Positions 18,801 through 63,494 of a stretch of 64,000 bases of DNA are shown in pieces. The position numbers and the translations under genes are program-made. Under the pieces are notes generated by a model, which did not search any database, was not told where the DNA came from, and worked only from the letters and a program-made list of their open reading frames with translations. Origin of the DNA: Haliotis rufescens (lineage: Eukaryota); NCBI RefSeq assembly GCF_023055435.1, contig NW_025964376.1:868001-932000 (forward strand). Direction: 5' to 3'. Within the stretch, counting starts at the first letter, position 1; each line of letters opens with the position of its first letter.

Positions 18801-20686
18801 TCTAATGACAATAAACTCTTGAATATGTCTATCTTTAGGCGATGTCGTAACAAAATATTATTGAAAATGACAGTTATTACCCCATTCTCCACCAACCCTG
18901 ACAATGAACCTAAACACACGGCTTTTTAACCACATTCAGTCCAGATCGATGTACTTGGGTTTTCTCAAAGTCAATTTGTTGCCAGAAACTCATGTCGTAA
19001 ATGAACCTCGTGGGCAAAATGAATATGTCCCTCGTAAAGATTCTAATCATAAGAACATATAAACGTCACAAGTCATTGACTTTTGTTGCATACTGACAAA
19101 GTCGTAGCTCTGCACAACGACTGTGAAATATATTTGATGGAAACCAATCTAAATTGTAAAAAATAGCCATCTGTATTCCACGCCTGAAAGACATGTTATG
19201 AAAAGAAAATTAGGAGAGAAATGTTTTGTGTCATAAAAGGATCCCATAGACAATATGTTAGTCTAATAAAGATGTACATTGATATGACAGATGGATTCAT
19301 TCTCAAATTCTAGAAAGAATATGTTTCAACAGTATATTGTCATTCGTGGCATATCGTCTGAGTTAATAGCAGGATAATATTTGAAGCATACTCACATGTT
19401 AGATTTTTGAGAGAAAAAATCAGTGAAAAGGTATGGAGTGAGTTAATGTTGAATTACGGCACAGTAAACGCTTTCCTAGCAACATCATGTTGTTTAACGC
19501 GCCGGTCTGTAAATAATCGAGTCTGGACCAGACAATGCAGTGATTGATATTATTAGCAACGATCAACGCAATTTGGATACGATGACATGCATCAACCAAG
19601 TCGGCGAGCCTGACTACCCGATCCCGTTAGTCGCCTCTTACGACAAGCATGGGTTGCTGGGATTCTAGCCCGTATCTTCACAGGTATGGAAATGCAATGA
19701 TACATGACCAATCAGATAGAACGGAATTCTGGAAATACTGGTGAACATTTGTTCAGTGACAAGCTTATCTGTTTGATTAGGTCTCCTCTCTGCAGGAACG
19801 CGATGTCGCCCATCACCCCATAAACAAGACCGCCGATCGTGTGTTCGAATCCCACATATCCCCGATGATTTGCCTGATCTGTCAGTTCGATGTGTAAACG
19901 TTTTGCTTCGTCACTTCAAACTTTCCTTCCAGACTTTCTGGCAAGCCATAATATAACAGAAATCCAAATCGCAAGCTGGAATCGAATTTGATACGGACCC
20001 AGGATATATAAGTTTAAACAGGCTTAATTATAGCTCGAACACAAACACCATTGTATTTACCATATTTCACAACGTATAATACTCAAATTCTTTCTGACTG
20101 CTATTTCTTCGATCCTGAAACACAAATTTGATTCATGTTTCTCCTTCTTCTTTTTCTTAGCTATGCTAAGAATGAAGAGGCCAATGTCATTTAAATCAGA
20201 TCTTGGTTCTCGATACCGGTAAACAACAATTTGTTTATGGCGGTAGCGAGAACTAAGATCTGATTTTAATGAGACTGATGCAAAGGCTCGCTTGTTTGTA
20301 GATTTCTGGTTCATTTTCAAATTTAATACGTTCGTCTTTCACATGGAACATCCGTAAATATACGCGAACAGTGCACGTGTAAATGCATCGCCACACGCGT
20401 GTATCGCGTCAACTTACGTCATAGCCTGGTATGAAAGACTGATTCCTTTCTGTAAACTGACAACAACAGTTGGTTTCTTTAGTCCTGCCTCAACATGAAG
20501 GCTACGTATTTAGAACACTTCGTTTGAAATATAATCTTCAAAGACGATAACCCCTTTCAAATGGGGTTGCGGAAAATCAGGTCCCAATGTGTTTCGAATC
20601 AGCATCATGTTATGTAATTTGAGCAAGATGTGTTACTTTGCCGTGTAAGACAAGTTGGACGAGAACATGCTTTGTGATCGGAGAGA

Positions 20687-22806: not shown

Positions 22807-23398
22807 GTGAGTTCAGCATGGCCTATAATAGTTGCTATATCAATGAAACATTGCCAAGTCGACAAATGAAATTGGAATTGGATTCCGAATCAAAATATGT
22901 TTCAGTTCCCATGCTTGACCCGTGAAGATCCAGGTTAAAATAGATCTTCAGTAACCCATGGTTGCCATAACAGGCGACAATGCTTGTCGTATGAGCTGAC
23001 GTTGCCGGTGGGTCGGTGGCTGGCTCTGCAACATGGCTGATCATGTATACACTTGATAAAGTCCAATTAATAAATTCTATCCATTACTAGATGACCCGGG
23101 GTAGAATAAGTCTTCAGCAACCCATGTTTGCCGTAAAAAGCGACTTAGCTTGTCGTAAGAGTCGACTTACGGGATCGGGTGGTCAGGCTCGCTGACTTTG
23201 TTCATGTCATCGTATCCCGATTGCGTGGATCGTGGCTCATGATGTCAATCACTGGATTGTCTGGTCCAGACTCGATTATTTACAGACCGCCGTCACACAG
23301 CTGGCATATTCCTGAGTGCGGCGTTAAACAACAAATAAACATTCCTAGAGTATTAAATGGCATGGCATCATCTCAACTAGATGTAATATTCGTTTCAG

Positions 23399-25582: not shown

Positions 25583-28184
25583 ACGTCTTTTTGAAAACCA
25601 TATTCTTTGTTATATGTTTTGCATGCATTGGGCCCCAGAAACAACCGTCCAGATATCAGAGTCTTCTGTTTCCTTTGGGGGCACGGGCAGCCCCGTCGTC
25701 TAAGGCGCCGGAATTTGCTGTGCATAGTTTTGTCCCTTTGGCACGCCAGAAACACGATCTTCGAATCCCGGTCCGCCCCGATAATGTTGATAGTGCTCGT
25801 GGGTTTCACCAAAGTGGTAAACGTTTAAGACCTGCATCACGTCGGGATTTCCTCCAACCACACCGTGATGTAACTGGAATACTGTTCAATTCGAAGTTAA
25901 ACCTAACCCACTCTGTTTCCTCTGCCAAATTCTCCAACCTGATATTGTGGCAGGCACTTAATTAGTTTCGGACAAGGGGTGGAGGGATAGCCTTCGCTAA
26001 AAGCAAGTGCTCATCAGACTAAAGATTCGGGTTCGTTTCCTACTTGCACATGGATTCCAAGTCCTGGTGTCCTCCGACGGTATGTTGTTGGAATATTGCT
26101 AAAAGCGGTGTAAAACTATTGTCATTCATTCCATTATTATTTGCACTTAAATGGATCGATTACAGGCTTCATGCCTTTAAAACTCGAATAGCTCATGTGT
26201 TTTAACTCTGCGACCCAGAACGTAAAGTTATTTCAAATCACAACCAACCCACATCTGCCAATACTTGTATATTGCTGATATATTAACCAATGGAAAGGAC
26301 TGGTTGCAGTCGAAACTCACGGCGGAACTGCTTGTCCTAATCTGCATCTGTGTGTGTAGCTGCTTGTGCTAGTCCGAACTGATGCCGATTAATATTGCTA
26401 GCATTGTGAGATACCATGCCACAGTTTAACATGACTACCCCACTCAGACACAGTATACTGATTCCGAGCCGACGAGTCTTTGTTTTAGCCACTTGATGCC
26501 GAGCGCCAGACAGGGTAACAAGAAGTACCATCTTTTAACGTCTTTCGGTATGATGCGGCCGGATCTTCCGTTCTCCGGGCCGGCGCTCTACCACTAGACC
26601 ACGGAGGCGACCCCACTGATACGAACAACATTGTAAAGCCACCGCGTCTTGAGATAAAGTATACGAACACCACTGAAGTACAGACGTGTCTTTGGATGAT
26701 CAATTGAAGTTGTTGTTGTTTGTCGTTTACCGCCGCACTCAGCAATATTCCAGCTATATGACGGCGGTCTGTAAATAACCGAATCTGGACCAGACACATT
26801 AAGTGATTGATATCATGAGCATCGATCCACGCAATTGGGATACGATGACATCCATCAACCAAGTCAGCGAGCCTGACCACCCGATCCCGTTAGTCGCTTC
26901 TTACGACAAGCATAGTCGTTATTTTTTCGGCAAGCATGGGTTGCTGAAGACCTATTCTACCCCGGATCTTTCATCCGGTTGATGCATGTCATCGTATCCA
27001 AATTGCATGGATCGACGCTCATGATGTCAATCACTGGATTGTCTGGTCCATACTTGATTATTTACAGACCGCCGTCATATAGCTGGAATATTGCTGAGTG
27101 CGGAGTAAACAAACAAAATGTGTGATTCCACGCTCTTGGAAGCCACTGGAGCCTATGTGGAGCCCATTGGTGTACTTCGTGCAACCACCACGCTCACCCA
27201 TTCCTGCTTCATCACTTGATAATACAAAATGACGGGACCTCTTTTCAAACAGATGTACACATGATGGGACTGAAAATATCCACAAGGAAGGCCTATTCTT
27301 TTGTCAGAATCGAATGTCATCAGATACTGATACATGCGCCAGCAACTGAAGTTCTGATACAATGAGGAAATTGTATGCCCCTGTATTGTACAATAACCTC
27401 TCTCTATATATACAACACCACCAGGAGTTAAATCCCATCTCTCCAAATCATGTCATGGTGTCTTGGACAAGACGGAAAATGGTAGCATCTCGCAAAACAT
27501 CGTACAATAGAGACCTACGAGTTAGGGATTGGATTTAATGGAGCGGGAGTGAAGTCAAATTCACATTGAGACTGAATAACCGTATAATTGCCAATTGCAT
27601 CGATTTATTCATGGCAATACGACACGATATATGGGGGTGATGCGTGAAATTTGGAGATACGGCATTGCACTCCTGTGCCTTGTAATAAACACAGCACACA
27701 ATTTCATTATTTTAATCCGAACTTTAGATGTGAGTGACGGCTTGTAACTCCCTGATGGAGAGCGGGTTCGGTGCCGCGTCTACTGTTCCAGCAATTTCAC
27801 GGAACGGTACAGAGAATGGACTCCACATACAGTACCTATATGGGGATTCAAACCCGATGCTTTGACTTACCGCTTTTTGGACGGTGGGATTGCCGAGTGG
27901 TTAAAGCGTTTGCTTGTCACGCTGAAGACCCGGGTTCGAGTCCCTTCATTGGTACAGAGCGTGAAGCCAATTTCTGGTTTTCCCATACTGAAATATTGCT
28001 AAAAGCGGGGTAAAACTATAGTCACTCACACACTTGACGCTCAAGACATTCGGCACCGTAGACCTCGCGTTTAGAGAAAAATAGAGAAGTTATATAAGAC
28101 CAGAAGCTCTTGGAAGCAGGATTGAAACGCACATTAAATGCGTTTTACTGCTCTCACACAGCAATAAAATGGCTACATAATGTA

Positions 28185-35506: not shown

Positions 35507-38147
35507 TCACTTCTTGAAGTGAATTCCTGTGAAAATAGCAACAGAACATGGAGGTGGAATACAGTCAGTGTGTGCGTGAATAAAACAGATATTTAACAAG
35601 ACATTTTATTTAATTGTATATTTGCACATAGTTTGAAATAATATACAAATCACCTGCACACGTGCCGTGGTGGCCTTGCCATATGACGACCCGGGCAGAT
35701 GTTTACTGATTATATCGTATTTCGTAATCAGTTTCTTTCACATCAGGTGAAAGCCACGTGAGATAACGTGAGACCGGATGTACACCTCCGCTGTCACCTG
35801 AAGAAATATATACCGTCGTCCCTCGTGAGCTTTCCGTTCTGTGGAAAGGAGATAAGATATCAAGGTCCCCCTTTTAAGGTTTAACACACCATATGGTCAC
35901 GGCAACAGAGCACACCGGAATTGTAGTATTTTCTTGAGCAGTCGTGTAACGGAAGAATCCGGAAATGAGGTCTATCGTCACGGATGCGCATGTTTCAGGG
36001 CGCTGCGCTTCATTTCCGTGAAAGCACGCATAGCGGATGTTGACGTCTTTGAATCATACAACACAATTTTCGACTTTAGACTTGGTTGGGGTAAGAGATG
36101 ACATACTGTCTCAGTAACATACACTTCACCAGAAAATGTGTTTGATTTCTTCCTTCCAACGTACGACTGCCGCACTTGATCAAATTTCCGATAAACAGAA
36201 TCGCGTCAGTCTCCCATATGTCGTCAGAGTAGGAAATTATTTTTTTCATGTTCAGATTCATTTTCTGAAATGATGCGAAGTTATGCAGATGCCATATATC
36301 AGTGAAAGATTATGAAATGTTTCCAATAATACTGAAATATATATTCATAAAATGGAGTTATTGTCTATGCCCTGGTGGCCTTTGCCTGTCTAGCATAGAC
36401 ATTATGATTAATTCCACGTCTGAAACTGGTACATTAATTGTCTCTGATTATTTAGAGTATCATTCACTTTTAAACTGCTTGCCGTAAGCGGCAGCTAACG
36501 GGATCGGGTGGTCGGGTGGTCGGGCTCGCTGATTTTTCACAGTTGTGCCCCTTGGTCGTCCAAGGATCCTGTTTACGTGGTTCAATCCGAGGTTCGTAAA
36601 GATTAACATCCCAGGTTTGTCAGCACCACAGTACACTCCTACGATCTGTTTCCTTATGTATCTGACATTTCATGACATGACTGTACAGCCCACTCGCTCA
36701 TTTCTCCATCACCCCTAGCTCCCTACCTCATCCCCTATGACCCGTGAAGATCCGGGGTAGAATAGGGGCACCAGAATTGGGCTTCACACATTGTACCCAT
36801 GTGGGGAATCGAACCCGGGCCCTCGGCGTGACAAGCAGCCGCTTTAACCACTAGGCTACCCCACAACCCCTTACAAGCAGGTAGTAATGAGGATGTAATA
36901 AAGAGGCCCGACCTGACGCGTACTGGGCAGATCCGTGAAGATTCCGGGGTAGAATAGGTCTTCAGCAACCCATGCTTGTCGTAAAAGGCGACTAACGGGA
37001 TTGGGTGGTCAGGCTCGCTGACTTGGTTGATGCATGTCGTATCCAAATTGCGTGGATCGTACTCATGATGTCAATCACTGGATTCTCTGAGTGCGGCGTT
37101 AAACAACAAACAAACAAATCCTCATCCTTACCCTATTCCCTCAATGTTCCCTCAATGTGCTACGTGCAATTACCCATTACTATATTACGTGCTGACAGTA
37201 CACTGCCGTGAAACCATCAAGTGTCCATCTTACATTAGCCTCAGGTGTTGGAAGATGGAAGCTGGCTTAAACTCGCCTCTCACCTCCTTCCACAGGCCGC
37301 TCTTTGATCCATGTTTATTTCCTGTTACTTTCGTTAACTAGGTCAACGTTAACAAGAAATATCCCATTATCGATAAAAGATCAAAGTATAGAGGCAATTT
37401 GCACTTATTTTTTATTGTAGCTCTTTGTCAGAAACACGAGTTAACACGAGTCTCTTGATGCTTTGGCTGGTTTATAGCGGAAGAGTTTGTCGTTTGTTTG
37501 TTGGTTAACGCCACATGCACTCAGAAATATTCCAGCTACATGACGGCGGTTTGTATAAATTCGGGTCTTGACCAGACAATCCAGGGATTGATATCTTGAG
37601 CATGAGCCCACGAAATTGGGATACAATGACATGCATCAACCAAGTCAGCGAACATGATTCCGTTTGTCAGTTAGGGTTCTTTTTGATGGAATGTCGTCAA
37701 CGTGTAACGTCAAATATGAAACTCTAGATGGGTACCAGGGTGGATTGACTCGTACGTGTAAGCGTGAGCGCCGCTTTTAACAATATTTCAGCAATATCAT
37801 GGCGAGCGACACAAGAAATGGGCTTCACACATTGTACCCATGTTTGGATTCGAACCCGGGTCTTCGGCGTGACGAGCGAACGTTTAACCACGAAATTACC
37901 CCACCACCCCTCGACCACATGCTGGTTGATTGCTGTCACCGATAACCCGACGTCGTGAATCGTTGTTCACAATATCAATCACTGGACTGTCTTGTCTAGG
38001 AACGATTTTTTTCTGACAGCCGTCATATAGCTAAAATATTGTTGAGTTCGGCGTCAAACGACAAACAAACAAACAAACAAACAAACTAAGGAATGCATGA
38101 CTTTGCTTTGAAACCAGTTTGAACAGTACTTCATTTTAATCACACCG

Positions 38148-42513: not shown

Positions 42514-44792
42514 CAGTTAATAAAATTATTGGGTAGACCACAAGCCATCCATGGGTACAGTTAATAACATATTTGATAGATCACAAACCACCCAGGGATA
42601 CAGTTAATAACGTATTTGATAGATCACAAACCATTCAGGGATACAGTTAATAAAGTGTTGGGTGGATCACAAACCGGTTATTTATACCGGTGGTATGTTA
42701 AAAACCGAAATCATCAAGTTGAAGTTGAGGCATATGCAATATTCGGTTATTTAAAACAAAATAAGAAATATACAATGCCTAATAGATGCATAAATTCTAA
42801 GGTTACCAAGGTTTATTTTTATAAGTGATTACCAAGTAGAATGTTTTATAAAGGAGTGACCGTTACACATACGTCAGAGCATCCCTTAAATAACAGTACA
42901 CCTGATAGAAACTACCGCTTAGAGTGACAACGATGTGTTTTTTCTGCGTACATATGAGAGGAAAATCTAGTTTTCTAACTCTCCCAATCAAACGATTTAT
43001 TCCCCGTCTGCAGGAAATTGAATGCCGTAAAAGTTTGCCATCAATCGATGTTGTTCGCCTAAATCCAAAATGGCGGACAATCACTTTGTAGTCCTGTCTG
43101 ATGATTTCCAGTATATATTTGTATTTGGACCGAGGCTTTCAACCAGAAACTCATGCCACACTGACAAACTACTCCGAAAGATAATCAAATCAGGAGATTT
43201 ATCCACTACTGTGAGGACAAAAACCGTGCCGCCGTTCCACACCCAAACACGATGGCATGTCCAAATTCAGTTATCTTCAAAACATGCATTTATGTGCCAA
43301 ATTCTGATATACTTACTGCAAGGAAAAACCATCAGGACTTAAAAACGAGATAAATTATCCAGGCCTTAAAAGGTTTGAAACACAGCATTTTTGATTTATA
43401 CAAAAACTTTATTCTGCACACAGTTTGACTTCAGCATCTCTTGACCTACTTGATGGTTGTATGAGTTGCTTCTAGCCTCTGCCAATCTTTTAAACCTATT
43501 TGCATTCACGCGGATAATCTGATAAACCCCAAATCCAATTATATTATTCCATTTTAACGCCATTTACCATTTGTGTCATTATCTAATTTCACCACCGACT
43601 GCTTGTCGATTCCTGAAGAGAATCAAGAATGTTCTGAAGTGCAAAAAATCCTGCAACGCAACTCTAGTCTGTGCTCTAGTGTTGTGACGAGTGAGTGATT
43701 GAGCGAGTGAGCAAGCGAGCGTTTGTCAACTAGGTCAACGTAAACAAGCAATATCCCATTATCGATAAAAGAGACAATTAGCACTTAGTTTTTATTGTAC
43801 CCGCTTTGTCTGAAACACTGACAACGTGAGTTTCTTGTTGCTTTGGCTGGTTTATAGCGGAAGAGTGTTTGTCGTTTTTTCATTTGTTATTTAACGCTGC
43901 ACGCAATATTTCAGCTAAATAAGGACGGTTTGTACATAATCGAATTTGGACCAGACAATCCCGTGATTGACATCATGATCATCGATCTACGCAACTGGGA
44001 TACAATGACATGCAATACTGACTACCCGATCCCGTTCGTCGCCTCTTGCGACAAGCATGGATTGCTGAAAATTCTAACCCGGATCTTCACGGATGGAGTG
44101 AGTGAGAGTATGAGTGAGTGAGTGAGTGAGTGAGTGAGTTGTTTCAGTAACTATGAACATGAGATGACCTATTTTGCTTCGTTGTTCCGAGTGTTGGGTT
44201 TGTGTGATTGAGGAGGAAAGGGCGGGGTGTCTCGGAAATACACATCTGAGGTTCATTTAGCCAATAAAGCACAGACAAATATACAGCTCAATCAGTATTA
44301 CAGAGCTTGTACTCTCGGCCAATCAGCCGGCGTTCCCGACGGAGCATTAACGTGGTGGTCTGCAGCATTAATTATGTTCGTCCGTCTCCGTCCGTCTTCC
44401 TGGCTCTATGAGCCCCAGGCCCTGGGGGATTCCTGGTAAACTTACCACAGGCTGTATCCATGGGGTTCCGGTTTAAACCGTGTCCGTACTAACGTACGCC
44501 TGCAGTCAGAGGCGGACAACCTGTTCGAGTGGTCAGGTTCTGAGACGTGATGACATCCGTGTAATCGTACCCCCACTGGATGGAAAATGCTCATGATATC
44601 AATCACTGGTGCTGAAGATTGTTGCTCATGCCCTCTGTCACTGGTTTGTTTGGCCCAGACTTGATTATTTCAATGGCGCCGTGAAATATTTGGAATACTG
44701 AATAGTGAGTCGTTAAACAACAATCACTCAGTTACACCGGATCTGCGGTTAAGTCCACATTGGCGATTGGCTATGGCGACCCATCTTCCCGG

Positions 44793-47051: not shown

Positions 47052-48683
47052 TATCATTCTATCTCTGCATGATGTTAGGGGACAAACCAGCCATGGTCTC
47101 CGTGGTGATTACAGTCAGAATAGGTCCCCAATGTGTATCGTGAGAGCTGAGAAATAACTAGGATCGAGTAGACAGTAAACATGCCCTGGCTGAGCGTGTA
47201 TTATTGCTTGTATCAAATATTTGCCTGGTCCAGACTCGATTATTTACAGGCTGCAGTTATATACGAGTAGCTGGAATATTGCGTCGTAAACCAACTCGCA
47301 CTCAATCCCAACGGAAGGGCCATTGGGTAGTCTAGTGGTCAAAGTGTTGGCTCATTGAGGTTTGATTCCCCATATTTGAGGTTTGATTGCCGTGGAATGC
47401 GGTATTAGACCCAACTCACTGACTCACTTAATCCGTACATGATAAAAACAGAGACATTTCCCACTTTGTTGAAACACACGACCTCGTTCTCGTTATGATG
47501 CTGACAATCCTTGGATGATAATTTGGGATATGGCCCATCTTTTAATTCATACCTATTATCATTAATTAGGTTTTGGCTTTCGCTGACGCCCCCACTATCT
47601 TCCCCTGGTACATATCTAAGCGCATCGTAAACAAACTCGACACAATACCAGGTGACAGCGCATTCCATCATCAGCACCGATGAATACTTACCGCACAGGT
47701 ATAATCAGCTTCACATTTTCAATTGATATTAAATGTATTCTTTGTTTCAGTTTCTGTCTTCAGACAGTATCAGTTTCAATATGCCACAGTGGTTGTAGTC
47801 TGGTAGTCGTCTCATAAAACGACACAGACATAGTCTCTGCCAATATGGAGTTGTGGTGAACATAACGTCCGTCGTGCCCGTTTCCAGAATGTCGTAAACA
47901 TGTCGTAAAGTAATCATCAGACTGGATGTTGGCTTTTTTCGGTGGGGCATTGGCTTTCAGATCGGTTTACGATCCGATTCACTTTTCGTCATTTATAGAT
48001 AACAACCTTTTTTTCAAATCTCAAAACACGCATATCACGTAATACTCGATAAATGACACTTAATGCCATGACGAAATGCAATATGGTCGTGCCATAGACA
48101 CGATGAAGCTAATGAGTTCTTCAGTTATATTGGTTTTATACAAACACTGCTGCCATGACGTTGGTTGACGTTGGTGATTTTTGAGACGCATGATGTGAAA
48201 CATTGAACTTGTTGTAATATGTAGCTGTTGTTTCCGTGTGAAATGCCAACCATTTATATGTGTTCTCTGAAAGGACGTTGGGCCCAGAATATGCCTAGAT
48301 TTCATGGTGATGGGTGATTTACATGGTTATATTTCATGGTGGTGTACACTGTATACTCTCCAAACCAAGTAGGAGATCATGAAATATAAGGCTAAGAACG
48401 GCCGTCAGAACAAAAAGCCAGCTTTGTTAAACGCCTGCCAGAGATAGAGCGGTTTCGGAATCAAAACCTAACGCCTCAACATACCCAATTCAAATGTGCT
48501 CGTAGGTAGGGTGTCATTCTTGATGTTGACACTTCAGTGAAATGTCGTCAAATCGCTCTGAGCATTAGTATTGTTCATTTTGATCCACAGTAACACGTAA
48601 GGCCTCTACTGTTGTTTTAATGCAGTGTATGTGATCAGATTGGGAATGCGTCGTCTGCAACGTGAACAGCGCCTAATTTTTTA

Positions 48684-52931: not shown

Positions 52932-55759
52932 CGAGGTGGTTAAAGTATTCGCTCGAAACGCCGAAGACCGGGCTCGATTCCCTTGTGTGACGCTCAATTC
53001 AGGTGTGGCCTGCCGTGATATTGGCGGAATATTTCTAAAAGCGGCATAAAACCATACTCACACATTCACTCCTGCATAGCCCCAACTGCATTTACAGCTT
53101 TCTAAAATCTACCACTGAAGGATTGCCTCATATGTTCTATTCAAATATCCACATCACTGGCGACTCAGGACTTCGTTCCAACAAGCGACAAACCCAATAC
53201 AAACACGCTAAGCAGCGGAGAGAGTCATATCGCTAAGATGGCTGTGCAGAAGGGCGCCCTGTTATCTGTCATGAAGTACCTTCTAACGCTTGTTGTTTTG
53301 TTCCATGTTAACGGAAACATCGTTATCTTAAGCATCCGGAGGTTTTATCAGAATGTCTCTGCAATCAGGTGGCCACACACTCACTACACAAGGCCACTGA
53401 AAGTTCGCAACGAGACAGGTTTATTCATATTTTTGGAACAAACAAGTCAGTGACCACAAACATACCAAACAATGACCCATTGTCCGAGCGCAAGGTATGC
53501 ACCAATGCCAAAAACGAAGGAATGCTTTATGTTCAAGTGCGATAATGTTGGTATTAATTTAATTTGTACCACAGAATTGCAAACAGCAGATTTAGGTATG
53601 AAAACATGTTTTTGTCCGCGGACAACGAAAAGTAGTTACAATGGTATGTGGTACCGAAATTGGTACTGAACTTTATGTCTTACAGATTCCTTCAAACCAA
53701 TAGTGTTCGTTTGTTGCTTAACGCTGCCCTCAGCAATATTCAGTCTATAAGACGACAGTCTGTAAAAACAGTCTGAAACAGATAATACAGTGATTGACAT
53801 CATGAGCATCAATCCACGCAACTGGGATACGATGACTGCATCAACCCAGTCAGCGAGCCTAACAACTCGATCCTGTTGATCGCCTCTTACGACAAGCATG
53901 GGTAGCTGAAGTCCCGTTCCCACCCGGACTTTCACGGGTGCAAACCAATAGTGAAGCGTCCTCGATTACCGGTGTATTATATCTTCAATCTATTTTGATG
54001 AATACCCTGGCCCCTTTTCCACACAAGCGACCGCAGCAATGAGGGGATCGTACTCCCATACTTTATCATAGACTTACGACTGTCGTAAGTCTGTCATCGC
54101 TTTATGGAACGACCGGTTTGCTGCGGTAACATCGTTTGTGAAATGACGTTACTCGTTCTCCGTACCTATCAGCATCCTCGCTCAGTACTTTCTCTCACAC
54201 ACGAAAGTAATTTGATTGGACGGTTTTTTGTATTGTCATGTCATTCGAATCGGACGCCAACGGAAACTTTGTTGTGGAATTGGTGCAGGTATTTCAAATT
54301 GCAGAATGGTGATATAATATACTTGATTATCGAAATCTTGCTGTATGAACTACGGATATAAACTGTGACCATTGGAAGGTTGTCTATGGAAAATAGACTG
54401 AAAATAGTAAGTACGGAAAGGTTATCGATCGGCTGTGGCAGATTAGTTGATACAATGCTTTTACATCTCTCTGTATGAGATAATGTTTCAAAACTAATGA
54501 GTGCTTGAAGAACGTTAATGCAAAACCTGAGCATTTTACCGTCTGTCACCTGAAGATTTATCACTGCAGGGATGAAAGGATATCCACATTATTTAAGAGA
54601 TTGTAAGTTTAAAGCTTGAAATTCTATAATACAATTATGAAATATTCTATTTCCAAATTGAAATTGGATAAGATATTGTGGTATCTAAAAATTCCAACGT
54701 TTCGGATTTATGGAAACCCCTTTAATCTGGACAGTACTGCTTTGAGTCACAAATCTTTTCAAATTTTCTAATTTTTGTAAATCATTATTGTTCGGTGTAT
54801 ATAGGTACACGTTCCTAACAGTGTATGACCGGAAGGCAGAGTATCTAGACTAACGAAGTTTTATTGTATTACTCGTATTACATGGTATTCGTATTCGAAG
54901 TGATGAGCGCCCGGGGCGCTCTCAAAATTCAGAAATAGGGGGCTCTTATTAGAATTAGAATTTGAAAAAAATCGTAAGATCGTTAATTTCGTAGTCTATC
55001 CCAGACAAACTAGTGATTGATATTATGAACAACGTCCAAATGTAATGTTATACGATGACACGAAATCAAGAAAGGTCACCGAGCCTGATTACCCAATGCA
55101 TTTAGTCACCTCGTGGGGCTTGCGGGACCTTTTTAAACCTGGAATCCCCACGAAGTGATTTTCAAGTGTTATACGTCCAAATCATTAAATATCTTTACCG
55201 ACTTTCACAAACACAAAGCTGTATTGCAAGAACACATTCCAGGAAAATCTCCAATACTGCTCTGATTAACCCAATGTGAACGGTACTAGTATGCGGGAGT
55301 ATGTGCTGATTGGAAGCAAATGACTCCACGTGGCCTGCGGGAATGCAGCTGATATACTATCCCGTGTCACGTTTCCCAGCAGCAGATATACTCACGCCGT
55401 TAAGTCACCGGGTGAAGATACGGGTCCTCGCAGTTTTGGCAAGGAGGGGATCTTTATCAGGATATACAATTTCCGTTTGAAATTATTAACAGTACTGAAA
55501 CCGCTTGCCAATTTTCAATACCACGTGTCTGAAGTTCGCAGCGGTTCGTTCTAAGTTTAACCTAACCAGCAATAAATGCAACATACATTAAATAACGAAC
55601 TCGCTGCAGGTTAGGATTGAGTTAAGAAACTGAATAACTCAACAGTCATTGGATGATGGACCATTCCATCATTGCATCTGTTATACAAAGACTGAACGAA
55701 CCTCTGCCTGGTTAGGTTTCAATTGTCCCAAACAATGGAGTTCCAGCTGTTGGAAGATG

Positions 55760-56012
55760 GACCCGTGAAGATCCGGAGTAGAATAAGTCTTCAGCAAACC
55801 CATGCTTGCCGTAAAAGGCGACTAACGGGATCGGATGGTCAGGCTCGCTGACTAGGTTGATGCATGTCATCGTATCCCAATTGCGTGGATCGATGCTCAT
55901 GTTTTTAATCACTGGATGGTCTGGTCCAGACTCGATTATTTACAGACGGCCGTCATATAGCTGGAATATTGCTAAATGCGATGTTTAACAACAAACAAAC
56001 AAAACAAACATT
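55760..56012 (+). mobile_element. Family D short retroelement without tRNA head (probably LINE 5'-end-derived), full length
   Basis: TSD TGTTGGAAGATG(G) (55748-55760, 56013-56025); starts GACCCGTGAAGATCC; (CAAA)n tail; no A/B boxes. About 20 copies or fragments, e.g. 19490-19685(-), 22372-22630, 23093-23340, 26710-26972(-), 31528-31748(-), 36929-37118, 43870-44093(-), 53705-53939(-), 59570-59828(-), 59915-60135. Confidence 0.85.
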
Positions 56013-56274
56013 TGTTGGAAGATGGTATACCAGTTAGACACTTGAGATGGCTGGAGAGATTTTAACGAGTTATGAGATTAACTTTATATGACTGGTGAAC
56101 ACACAACCTTTTGAGTAATGCACGGGTTAGAATCTGTGCCTGCTAACCTTTGCTGCCTGAGAGAGCGACAACATGGATCGGGCGGTCAGGCTCGGTGACT
56201 TGGTTGATCGTGGGCAGATGACTGGCTGGGGCCAAAATAACCCGTTGACCGCAAAGTAATGTGTTTTCGCCCGC

Positions 56275-57530: not shown

Positions 57531-60500
57531 NNNNNNNNNNNNNNNNNNNNNNNNNNNNNNNNNNNNNNNNNNNNNNNNNNNNNNNNNNNNNNNNNNNNNN
57601 NNNNNNNNNNNNNNNNNNNNNNNNNNNNNNNNNNNNNNNNNNNNNNNNNNNNNNNNNNNNNNNNNNNNNNNNNNNNNGCACCTTTACTTGCCAACGTTTT
57701 TTTTTTTAGAAACTGTAGCATCTGAACTCAAAATAATTGGGAAAAGTATGGGGTGAAATATGTATGACTGGTAACTAGAATAGATTCTGCCGCGACAGCG
57801 GAATACTTTGGGCCTCTGCCCCTTGGGGGACTGAGCCCACTCAGTGCGTTATTTATATATCAGGGAAACAAATTGACGTTCAACCGCCAACTTCTCAAAC
57901 AAGCCTTTTGCCGTCGGTCTTTAATGAAAGCCTAGTGACTGAGGAAGATTTAATGTACATTCGTTGGCGGTTAAAAGTGTTGGAATCCCCTTGTTCCTGG
58001 TCAACGTTGCCAGGAAGTCCGTTTAGACCCCCTGGCCTAGGTCATCGTTAGATTTGGTTAGACTCTTGTCTTTATATTAAATATATTTAACTTTGTCTAG
58101 CCCACGTAATTATTGATCACAACCCATGTGATAGATCCAGAAGAAAGCAGCGTGTTCATATATAATCTTGTGGGGATCTTTTCCCGGGGTGAGGTAATTT
58201 TGCATCTGAAGTGAAGTATAGGATGAATCAGAAAACCACTCGAAATTTAAGTTAGGTTTTGGGTTGCAAAAAACGAAGGAAGAGGGGCAGAGGAAAGTAC
58301 TGCTGGGTCTGCTTAAAAATACTCATAATCTGAATTGGACCTGCGGATCTTCATTATCAGTGCAGTCGATAACAACAGCAGGGGTGGAAGGTGTGCTCGA
58401 GGGCTGCACGCGAGTCGATGTGGCATGAACTCCACGTGCATCGCATCGCACTCCACCGCGATCCCCTCCTCAATGGAAATGGATCTTTCCTTTGCACGTG
58501 GAACGTCTATTGTCCCAAAACTCTCTTTCTCAACTTGTCTAACAGTAAGATCGGAGATCCCTCCTCGGGGGTTTACAAGCACAATCATATCCAAGAAGAA
58601 GTGCTATTTTATCTTAACCTCAAAATAATATTTTAAAAGGGTGTCAATTATTGGACTAAACAAAGAAACGAGGTGACTTGTCCCTTTACGTATACGCTTG
58701 ACTGGTTCCCTGATCATTCCGCAGGTGCAGCACGAAATTCCCGTTAAAAATGAATTCACGTTTATTTCTATCAAGTGTGAAGAATGTCACGTTGTGGACA
58801 TTTTTTGACGTGAAAATGTTCCTGCAGGAATGGCAGATGGCTGTCTATTGGAGAAGATGGCTTGTGAAAAAATGCCATAAAAGAAACGTTTCTGGTAAAC
58901 ATACGCTTCATGGATCGTACAAGTTACCGTCTTCAGCGGAAGTACAGGGTATACCCACAGCTCGGTTATGATGTGAAGACAATACGGATGACAGCAGCTG
59001 ATGGTGCGGCTATCAGAAACCTCCCAAGATAACATATGAAGAAGGGTTCATTATTTAACATGTTTAACATGTTGTCTCAATGACATTTTATTCACAGGAA
59101 ACTGGCACTTTTTTAATGTTTTAGGTTTACAATTCGCCGATCACGACAAAACAATGCCGCTGGGAAAATAGAAATGACATTTAAATAAAAAAGTAAACCC
59201 GATCGATCTTTGTTTTTATATAAAAAAAGAATACGATACAGATCTTACGCAGCGTTGTAAGCACCTGCGCAACGTAATTCGATTATATACTGAAGTAACA
59301 TAATTCTGGACTGTTTTAATAAGCTGTATCAAAGATAACACGAGTTACTTTCTCCCTTTTACCATCAACATACATGTATTACGATCAGCTGGCGTAATCT
59401 TCGGAATGGACAAGATCATACAATAGATCAGAACGCAATAAAATAACACGAGCACCTGTGTTAGATATGTCATCTAACGGAAATTGTCTTTGAATGTGTT
59501 GCGGCAAACTGAACATGATAATGACTTCAGTATCCACATTTTATGATGAATAAAGTGGAGTCTTACTGTTTGTGGTTGTTGTGAAACGTCACACTCAGCA
59601 ATATACCAGCTATATGACGGCGGTCTGTACATAACCAAGTCTGGACCAGACAATCCAGTGACTGACTTCATGAGCAATAATCTCCGCATTTGGGATAACT
59701 GAACAAGAAGCAACCAAGTCAGCAAGCCTGACCACCCGATCCCATTACACTCCTCTTACGACAAGCATATTCGCCTCTTACGACAAGTATTGATTGTTGA
59801 AGACCAATTCTAACCCGGATCTTCACATGTTGAAGTGGTACTAAAAGAATTGAAATATTGTGAGCATAGGTTTTTTAAATATACTATTTCGCTTCAAATG
59901 GCCTCTTGTTAAAGTCGCGACTTTGCTTGTCGTAAGAGGCGACTAACGGGATCGAGTGGTCAGGCTCGCTGACTGGGTTGATGCATGTCATCGATCCCAT
60001 ATTGCGTGGCTCAATGCTCATGATAATAATCACTGGATTGTCTGGTCCAGACTCGATTATTTACAGACCGCCGTCATATAGCTGGAATATTGCTGAGAGC
60101 GGCGTTAAACAACAAACCAACCAACCAACCAATCAACACAGCAACCTTATCACATCCACTACAAGGTCAAGGGCGAAAGTAAGGGACGTTATTCAAAATG
60201 ACAATGAGGTAATTTTGATGGAACATTCAGCATTCAAGATGCGCATCTATATCTAATATACAGTGGGTCATTTTGACAATACTGCTTATTTTGTTATGTT
60301 AATGTCAAAAGTCAAATGACTGATGAAAACCCCACCTTCACGACTGGTCATACTGAAAACACAAAATATTTCATGAACAATCTTTAGGCCATACATTACG
60401 GACAATGCGTTGCCGTGCCTGATGTCACAACACCGAATGAAACGGTGACGTCACATCAAGGGAGATAACTATGGCGCTTCATGCCTTCGACTAAAACTAA

Positions 60501-62246: not shown

Positions 62247-62605
62247 GACCGCCTCCGTGGTCTAGTGGTACAGCGTCCGCCCGGAGAGCGGAAGGTCCTG
62301 GGTTCGATCCCCGGCCGCGTCATACCAAAAGACTTTAAAAGATGGTACTTGTTGTTACCCTGTCTGGCGCTCGGCATTAAGGGGCTAAAACAAGGACTGG
62401 TCGGCTCGGAGTCAGTATACTGTGTCTGAGTGGGGTATTCGTGTTAAACTGCGGCATGGTATCTCAGTGAGCTAGCACTATAAATCGGCGCCAGTCAAGA
62501 CTAGTACAAGCAGCCACACACACACACACACATGTGCATGCACGTCGCTATATAAGTGCAATAATCTTGGACGCGACGTTAAACCCAATTTCACCTCACC
62601 TCACC
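62247..62605 (+). mobile_element. SINE family A (tRNA-derived head, V-domain-like body), full length
   Basis: A box GGTCTAGTGG and B box GGTTCGATCC; body GGACTGGTCGGCTCGGAGTCAG...TGTGTCTGAGTGGGG resembles the V-SINE domain; (CACCT)n tail; imperfect TTT(T/A)TTTCAA TSD. Other copies at about 15469-15690, 26340-26611(-), 31066-31420, 49500-49693(-), 52667-52890. Confidence 0.8.
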
Positions 62606-63048
62606 TTTATTTCAAACAAATTCTGTATTTCATATTTAAACCACAACGTCTTTGGTAAGTACAACTTTGTAGAATTACAGCCCTGTGTGAAGCTTTACAT
62701 ATATGAGATATACTTACGGATTGTGTTATACATCAGTCAGTCTTTTTTTCTTAATCCCGAGAAGGTCATTGGCCTATAGTACATGTATGCAAAGTAGACG
62801 TGGGTGCATGGATGCAATAGAATACACATTCTATTACATTCTACACATAACCATGATAACTGCTAAATAACGTCATGTCGTTGAGAAAGTACAATCTTTC
62901 TGGGCTATTTAATTGTGACAGTATATTTCCTCTTCAGATGTTAATTAATTGTGAGGACCATTGAGGACCATTGAAAGTGAGGACCATTGAACAAAGAGCC
63001 CCCCCGTGGGAATTCCGGGCTAGAATTGTCCCCTTGCAACATATCTGA

Positions 63049-63494
63049 TATCAGTCCCAGACGAATTCTGCGGAAAGATTGCAGAAAATGCGACTTTTCG
63101 GTGAAATGCCGAAAAATCGCGGATTTTGCCTTTTTTCATTAATCAATACACTATTTTAATTATTCTAAGCCTTCTCTGTAGAATTTTGCACACGAATGAT
63201 GCTCAAGCATTTAAGCAATAAAACGAACTTTGAAATAAATAGTTTTCACTTTTAAACGTTCTTGTGGTATTATGACTACAAAGGGTTGACATGTTAAACC
63301 AAACATGAAATCATTATATCTAAATGAAAGACATCAAAATTTGTAAAGAAAAAAGTGAGTTTGTATTAGTTTTCGAGTGGGAAATTGTTATGTTTTTACG
63401 ACATAAATTTGGTAATTTTACCCCAAAATGTTGGTACTTCTTACCGCAGAATTATGTGTGATAATTTTACCGCAGATTTCGCCTGGGACTGATA
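63049..63494. mobile_element. MITE with ~26-bp TIR, nested in an old family D copy
   Basis: TATCAGTCCCAGACGAATTCTGCGG ... CCGCAGATTTCGCCTGGGACTGATA; flanks ATATCTGA / ATATCTAC are a possible degraded 8-bp TSD. Confidence 0.75.

Follow-up and report, generated by a model that had tools for sequence, protein, structure and literature searches.

INTRODUCTION

What is the structured head of a short, tRNA-less retroelement for, and why do the copies begin precisely there? The question is raised by a 253-bp SINE at positions 55760–56012 of a 64,000-nt stretch of Haliotis rufescens DNA (contig NW_025964376.1; this whole stretch is referred to below as the window). The first 73 nt of this copy, from 55760 onward, form its head, which is predicted to fold as RNA; an initial annotation had seen there a covarying pseudoknot at the exact 5′ end of the element and a candidate 5′-processing ribozyme. 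SINEs of this type were described in molluscs as LP-SINEs (Hdi_LP, Hmi_LP, Lsa_2, Oco/Oed_LP and Sgl_LP; Matetovici et al., PMC4758252). Their head of ~70 bp is common to the 5′ domain of Nimb-17_LMi, I-3_DR and RTE-9_CPB, and the same paper proposes that it is a promoter, noting the parallel with the 77-bp promoter/ribozyme of trypanosomes (PMC4758252). The role of the LP head has been open since 2016. We found no description of its fold, of its core letters or of a link with viruses in a literature search that took in few subscription papers and left out figures and preprint supplements, so that an earlier description is possible.

RESULTS

A tRNA-less LP-type SINE that begins at its structured head

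The copy under study is bounded on both sides by a 13-nt target-site duplication (TSD), in agreement with the sequence and the element start given in the initial annotation. Its parts, and the other heads recognized in the window, are as follows.

55748–55760, plus strand: 5′ target-site duplication, 13 nt, whose last G doubles as the first base of the element
55760–56012, plus strand: LP-type SINE copy, 253 bp, with structured head, body, LINE-like tail and (CAAA)n end (type as in PMC4758252)
55762–55777, plus strand: stem A of a predicted 5′-terminal H-type pseudoknot, 55762–55765 with 55774–55777
55767–55792, plus strand: stem B (S1 in the initial annotation), 55767–55773 with 55786–55792
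55799–55829, plus strand: 3′ hairpin domain, consisting of stem C, an internal loop, stem D and a 7-nt loop
55799–55803 with 55825–55829, plus strand: stem C, weak in the SINE family of this copy
55808–55811 with 55819–55822, plus strand: stem D, capped by a 7-nt loop (55812–55818) of T-loop pattern
55955–56012, plus strand: 3′ tail, resembling the 3′ ends of I/Nimb-type LINEs of the genome, followed by short tandem repeats
56013–56025, plus strand: 3′ target-site duplication, 13 nt
36929–37004, plus strand: best-preserved other head in the window, a head-model match
19618–19687, 44026–44096, 53867–53941, 59758–59832 and 26881–26982, minus strand: other head-model matches
22916–22989, 23082–23156, 63000–63084 and 47096–47166, carrying no minus mark: other head-model matches

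No tRNA was found in the copy, and it contains no mismatch-free A or B box of RNA polymerase III, only matches with one or two mismatches at unfitting places, as expected for the element without tRNA and Pol III boxes that had been annotated. Elsewhere in the window, positions 62251–62322 give a weak Rfam tRNA match (30.7 bits) that is not called by ARAGORN and is probably a SINE head. Further hairpins (GUCAG/CUGAC and others) can be seen by eye in the SINE body, between 55828 and 55935.

The copy resembles the LP-SINEs in being tRNA-less, TSD-flanked and about 255 bp long (255 bp for Hmi_LP in the supplement of PMC4758252), in sharing its head with LINEs and in ending with short tandem repeats. 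The scallop LP heads of supplementary figure S2 of that paper have the same core, and stems A, B and C fit them by eye (PMC4758252). The copy is thus very likely an LP-SINE, an assignment based on length, anatomy and the core of the scallop heads. The LP-SINE paper differs in taking the head as a likely promoter, and its accessible text presents no structure, virus link or HDV-like leader (PMC4758252).

The core 18-mer of the head has 12 matches in the window versus 0 in 100 shuffles, and a head model gives 18 matches in the window at E up to 1. The whole genome (G000) holds 23,648 exact matches to the core 18-mer (0 for the reversed control) and 15,148 to the 5′ block of the main head. The head with a G/C-shifted S1, which had been pointed out in other copies, is a genuine older subfamily with 324 matches. 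By contrast, the variant at 53938, cited initially as covariation evidence, occurs a single time in the genome against the 15,148 matches of the main head. An exact 17-mer was also found at at least 120 metagenome loci, spread over several unrelated repeat families.

The 5′ ends of the SINEs were surveyed in 92 core matches from 90 loci selected by the core alone, 50 of which retain the 5′ block. The base just before CCCG is A in 42 of these 50 copies and the base before that is G in 32, the sequence being mixed further upstream; in the 11 copies with a good TSD, the gap between TSD and CCCG is GA (4 copies), A (5 copies) or longer (2 copies). These biases and gaps place the SINE start 1–2 nt upstream of CCCG, i.e. 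of stem A, and most SINE families with this head open with a purine. The last hairpin module, annotated as single in some copies and tandem in others, is indeed present once in 26, twice in 63 and more often in 3 of the 92 core matches. A group of 52 copies with a damaged head and common upstream DNA proved to be a passenger within a larger repeat.

The head is predicted to fold into a 5′-terminal pseudoknot followed by a T-loop hairpin

Besides S1, the initial annotation had drawn a pseudoknot stem S2, between the S1 loop and the downstream ACCC, and an outer stem. All candidate stems were submitted to a partner-permutation test on 29 diverse heads, one or two per family, picked by hand with the exclusion of rows lacking an intact 5′ part. 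With the heads split by sequence anchors (7 of the 29 placed by hand) and with statistics that ignore relatedness, partner specificity was highest for stem B (z −10.9), followed by stem A, which pairs the 5′ CCCG with the S1 loop (z −3.8), and stem C, which pairs CCCAU with the 3′ end (z −3.5). S2 (z +0.4) and the outer stem (z +0.9) showed no preference for their own partner over shuffled ones, although both can be drawn on copy 55760 and the outer stem is included in its nested minimum-energy fold. A subset of 22 heads gave the same outcome. When the six viruses described below were taken alone, B, A, C, S2 and the outer stem ranked at 1, 10, 40, 52 and 347 of 720 permutations, counts that leave stem C and S2 indistinguishable among these viruses.

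A 12-row alignment, restricted to heads in which stems B and A are not separated by an additional base and aligned on sequence only, had 95.7% of its cells paired, versus 67.3% after shuffling and 36–48% after sliding. Double changes affect all 7 pairs of stem B; in stem A, 36 of 36 cells are paired, with one double change, found in 3 rows. Energies favored A plus C in 22 of the 29 rows and S2 plus the outer stem in 7, including copy 55760 and its family, for which S2 plus the outer stem is a possible alternative fold. In copy 55760, stem A has 3 of 4 pairs, with a one-nucleotide loop (U at 55766), and stem B 6 of 7; stem C is weak or missing in several homologues.

The pseudoknot consensus thus consists of a stem of 4–5 bp, one U (25 of 27 heads), a stem of 7 bp and a crossing loop that varies in length and ends in AGAAU (AGAAUA at 55780–55785 in copy 55760), then the hairpin. 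The pseudoknot is frequently followed by N-G-Y (G in 16 of 27, the following pyrimidine in 25 of 27). The loop letters are conserved beyond what pairing requires; since the homologues were collected via the core word, the invariance of the core is partly built in. Altogether, the head is predicted to open with an H-type pseudoknot, right at the 5′ end, followed by a hairpin with a T-loop-type loop, and the two may dock onto each other. Of the original proposal, covariation, S1 with its compensatory changes and a pseudoknot at the exact 5′ end survive, but the strands that had been taken to form the pseudoknot are probably wrong.

A LINE family carries the same motif behind an HDV-like leader

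Two full-length LINEs of the genome (APE, RT and RNase H) bear the motif, with 73–75% identity to the SINE head over 64 nt. In both, the TSDs put the start of the LINE 57 nt ahead of the motif; the intervening leader is located as follows.

L248:1424–1481 (G000:C168), also in L322 and L323: HDV-like leader, compact, 58 nt, almost no P4, at the exact LINE 5′ end

The leader family, which belongs to an autonomous LINE of the I/Nimb type, has about 800 copies by pattern. Its anatomy comprises P1 (7 of 7 pairs, opening with a G-U), P2 (7 of 7), P3 (3 of 3), an L3 with the sequence UCCUCGU, and P1.1; J4/2 contains a C in 77 of 84 copies, the other 7 not being scored, and the TSD junction lies at G1. 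It matches RF02682 with an E value of 0.0015 and 28.5 bits, under the gathering score of 44. From this anatomy and from the copy ends, the leader appears to be an HDV-like ribozyme that would cleave itself. One member, L322 (G000:C2:22557500–22566500), is a full-length LINE with a TSD and two uninterrupted ORFs, of 453 and 1229 aa when counted from stop to stop.

To find where LINE copies begin, we used 84 of 827 matches, picked on the motif and drawn from the first 100 listed: 82 start with the full leader, 2 with a partial leader and none at the motif. Conversely, the motif or its 5′ part follows the leader in 30 of 30 loci picked on the leader. The absence of LINE copies starting at the motif suggests that the motif neither cuts nor starts RNA there. 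An HDV-like descriptor applied upstream of core matches gave 31 of 31 hits in the LINE versus 0 of 96 in SINEs and 0 of 142 in the other matches. A search for other LINE families with a core variant returned 30 loci, all SINEs.

The motif lies about 620 nt ahead of the first Met of LINE ORF1. Its 7-nt loop reads U-A-N-R-A-G-G, which is the T-loop pattern, in all 79 scored copies; one copy picked on the leader has a U at position 2. A T-loop is also described for class 3 exonuclease-resistant RNAs (xrRNAs; PMC12397905). The UAA that follows stem D is altered in 50 of the 79 LINE copies; that selection on the motif relaxed once the LINE had gained a ribozyme is only a guess.

None of the listed motif holders is on record as RNA. 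Small-RNA runs from a related organism, which are uninformative on 5′ ends, contained 21 reads on the SINE body, none on the head and, in one of two runs, an antisense pile of 85 reads on the LINE motif. In one run of this related organism, the LINE pseudoknot is covered, at L322:8078–8107, by one antisense small RNA species, abundant and about 29 nt long.

The motif is present in RNA viruses and in a DNA virus

Eight viral scans, relaxed patterns included, revealed the whole motif on seven viral contigs that correspond to six distinct viruses: five RNA viruses, assigned through RdRP or capsid Pfam matches, and one DNA virus. RdRP_3 occurs in two carriers, a tombus-like genome that also encodes a noda-type capsid and a second contig; RdRP_4 marks a toti-like genome. 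Two further contigs, related to each other, have an A21 capsid, another has an S-domain capsid, and the last carrier is the 212-kb contig of the DNA virus. In the five RNA viruses, the last stop codon is followed by stem A at a distance of 6, 11, 24, 74 or 100 nt. The viral stems are unlike those of any SINE and the SINE body is lacking, which argues that these sequences are not host chimeras.

Contig L156 (IMGVR_UViG_3300012776_000087) carries two diverged motif copies in tandem at its end; it encodes a capsid ORF, then a 1217-aa ORF without Pfam or PDB match, and owes its RNA-virus status to the capsid match and the database label. On the 212-kb contig, the motif (L325:6955–7029) stands without a SINE body between two same-strand ORFs.

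Among 196 relaxed viral matches examined, 10 passed the pseudoknot filter, 5 of which were already known and 5 were rejected by eye; the relaxed scans added no variant members among the matches listed. L157 and L159 contain the core only and not the whole motif, and the remaining viral matches are attributable to chance. Bacterial occurrence was likewise rejected: all 13 matches in prokaryote genomes come from a symbiont assembly or from metagenome bins, and those that bear the motif have animal-repeat-like flanks and are attributed to contamination. Several prokaryote bins (L309–L321) hold contigs or inserts resembling animal SINE or LINE DNA.

Comparison with known ribozymes and xrRNAs

Rfam 15 gave no match to the motif, as had been anticipated, either on the locus (E up to 10) or on 20 loci homologous to it (E up to 2). 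On the locus and the 20 homologues, hammerhead, twister, pistol, hatchet and twister-sister were sought through family models and cores, and none matched. The pistol ribozyme consists of P1, a pseudoknot of 6–7 bp, an A-rich crossing loop and P2/loop 3. The motif recalls it by a P1 with a 6–7-bp pseudoknot and by the A-rich crossing loop, but has no P2/loop 3 between this loop and the 3′ strand of the pseudoknot and no Rfam match. HDV-like ribozymes are 5′-terminal in the retroelements R2, RTE and Ingi/L1Tc (Ruminski 2011, as cited in PMC5786205). The nested double pseudoknot of this type, with P1, P2, P3/L3, P1.1 and the catalytic C in order, is absent from the motif, again with no Rfam match, whereas one such ribozyme lies directly upstream of it in the genome's LINE.

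As a functional class, xrRNAs stall Xrn1 or other 5′–3′ exonucleases and enclose their 5′ end in a ring of about 15 nt. Like xrRNAs, the head has at least one covariation-supported pseudoknot. The folds specific to the individual xrRNA classes (a three-way junction; P1/P2 with L2B; the coremin hairpins), as delimited by the available published descriptions, were not found in it. Class 3 xrRNAs of Tombusviridae and Solemoviridae (PMC12397905) come close in combining a pseudoknot and a T-loop and in their location in viral UTRs, and the N-G-Y of the head loosely recalls their AGY motif (PMC12397905). Their T-loop, however, is within the P1/P2 apical loop, whereas in the head it is borne by a distinct hairpin, downstream of a 5′-terminal pseudoknot; the likeness is one of architecture. 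Coremin (xrRNA-C, PMC10321173) similarly consists of a small H-type-like pseudoknot with a one-nucleotide L1, followed by a required hairpin, but is much shorter, with a non-canonical stem 2 and other conserved letters, and occurs in plant viruses (PMC10321173).

DISCUSSION

The SINE copy belongs to a known kind and carries a real RNA module that we have not found described and that is shared with viruses. A single function must be compatible with SINEs beginning at the motif, with a LINE whose copies begin at a ribozyme ahead of it, and with viral 3′ UTRs. We tentatively favor the idea that the head is a new kind of RNA resistant to 5′ exonucleases that sets the 5′ ends of the SINEs, because a passive block of this sort fits both the SINE ends and the position in viruses. 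The viral motifs, 6 to 100 nt past the last stop codon, are placed as xrRNAs are, which need a pseudoknot, are located in 3′ UTRs and often come in series (PMC8374639; for the location, also PMC10321173). SINEs devoid of tRNA promoter and ribozyme would be copied within read-through transcripts; Xrn-type enzymes would shorten such a transcript until they reach the first stem A pairs, where the head would act as a roadblock to 5′-to-3′ degradation in the manner of viral xrRNAs; an I/Nimb-type LINE would then recognize the common tail and retrotranspose the trimmed RNA. In viruses, the module would leave a protected 3′-UTR RNA. The LINE itself is compatible with such a block since ribozyme products carry a 5′-OH and Xrn1 uses 5′-OH RNA poorly. 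With still more reserve, we suggest that the head represents a new xrRNA class that has passed between RNA viruses, a DNA virus and retrotransposons in several groups of animals, so that a host decay enzyme would carve the SINE 5′ end with no need for a promoter or a ribozyme.

Several observations stand against an exonuclease block. No xrRNA class has the topology of the predicted head, and Xrn1 was not stalled by plain H-type frameshift pseudoknots, whether or not a hairpin had been added (PMC10321173). With none of the 84 LINE copies starting at the motif, nothing points to stalled LINE RNA. The block also gives no clear reason for the LINE to retain the motif behind its ribozyme.

This retention in 84 of 84 copies, at a distance of about 620 nt from the first Met of ORF1, would fit an element for cap-independent translation or for the binding of ribosomes or other factors, which would help uncapped LINE RNA and viral RNA and bring SINE RNA near new LINE protein. 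3′ cap-independent enhancers and the targeting of Alu to ribosomes through SRP are known, and the motif sits in the 3′ UTR of the tombus-like and toti-like viruses and, in the DNA virus, ahead of an ORF. We nevertheless regard this explanation as rather unlikely: it accounts neither for SINE families starting exactly at stem A nor for a head that replaces the tRNA head (PMC4758252), and we see no variable loop suited to long-range pairing.

The sharp SINE 5′ ends would fit ribozyme cleavage, and in the SINEs the copies do begin at the motif as a 5′-cleaving ribozyme would have it. A new class cutting just 5′ of stem A, with the corrected fold, would also agree with the strongly kept core, for which the relaxed viral scans brought no variants among the matches listed, with the occurrence of ribozymes at the 5′ ends of LINEs and in the UTRs of viruses (PMC5786205, PMC13725137) and with the report that three Repbase LINEs open with this domain (PMC4758252). 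However, the LINE end is occupied by an HDV-like ribozyme distinct from the motif and none of the 84 LINE copies begins at the motif, although masking or inactivity of the motif in this family is conceivable; in the five RNA viruses, a cut would detach the 3′ end from the rest of the genome; and no Rfam ribozyme matches. The proposal of a 5′-processing ribozyme is thereby weakened to the point where the module probably is not one, and a new cleaving class seems unlikely.

An internal DNA promoter, as published for the LP head (PMC4758252) and as kept in reserve by the initial annotation, either alone or doubling as an RNA element like trypanosome Pr77, would suit the 5′ position of the head and the purine with which most of the SINE families start. 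We consider it improbable: the covariation of the stems and the occurrence in RNA viruses, which a promoter leaves unexplained, require a role as RNA, a single fixed geometry cannot yield starts at −1 in the SINE and −57 in the LINE, and there is no clean A or B box. More improbable still is a mere binding site for the element's own polymerase or a host protein (for packaging, template selection or RNA stability, with no nuclease or ribosome involved), which would explain the conservation of loop letters beyond pairing needs but sits badly with carriers that have unrelated polymerases (RT, RdRP_3, RdRP_4 and those of a DNA virus).

The head of the LP-SINEs is thus a conserved RNA fold, absent from Rfam and shared with viral UTRs, and the LINE with an HDV-like ribozyme ahead of the motif provides a natural control for its function. 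Should the head drive translation or cleave, it would be a new RNA class all the same. If it blocks Xrn1, SINE 5′ ends could arise by a third route, and an xrRNA outside of viruses, still being sought according to a 2021 review (PMC8374639), would be in hand; and if it is indeed an exchanged xrRNA, a cellular genome would contain tens of thousands of copies of such an RNA.
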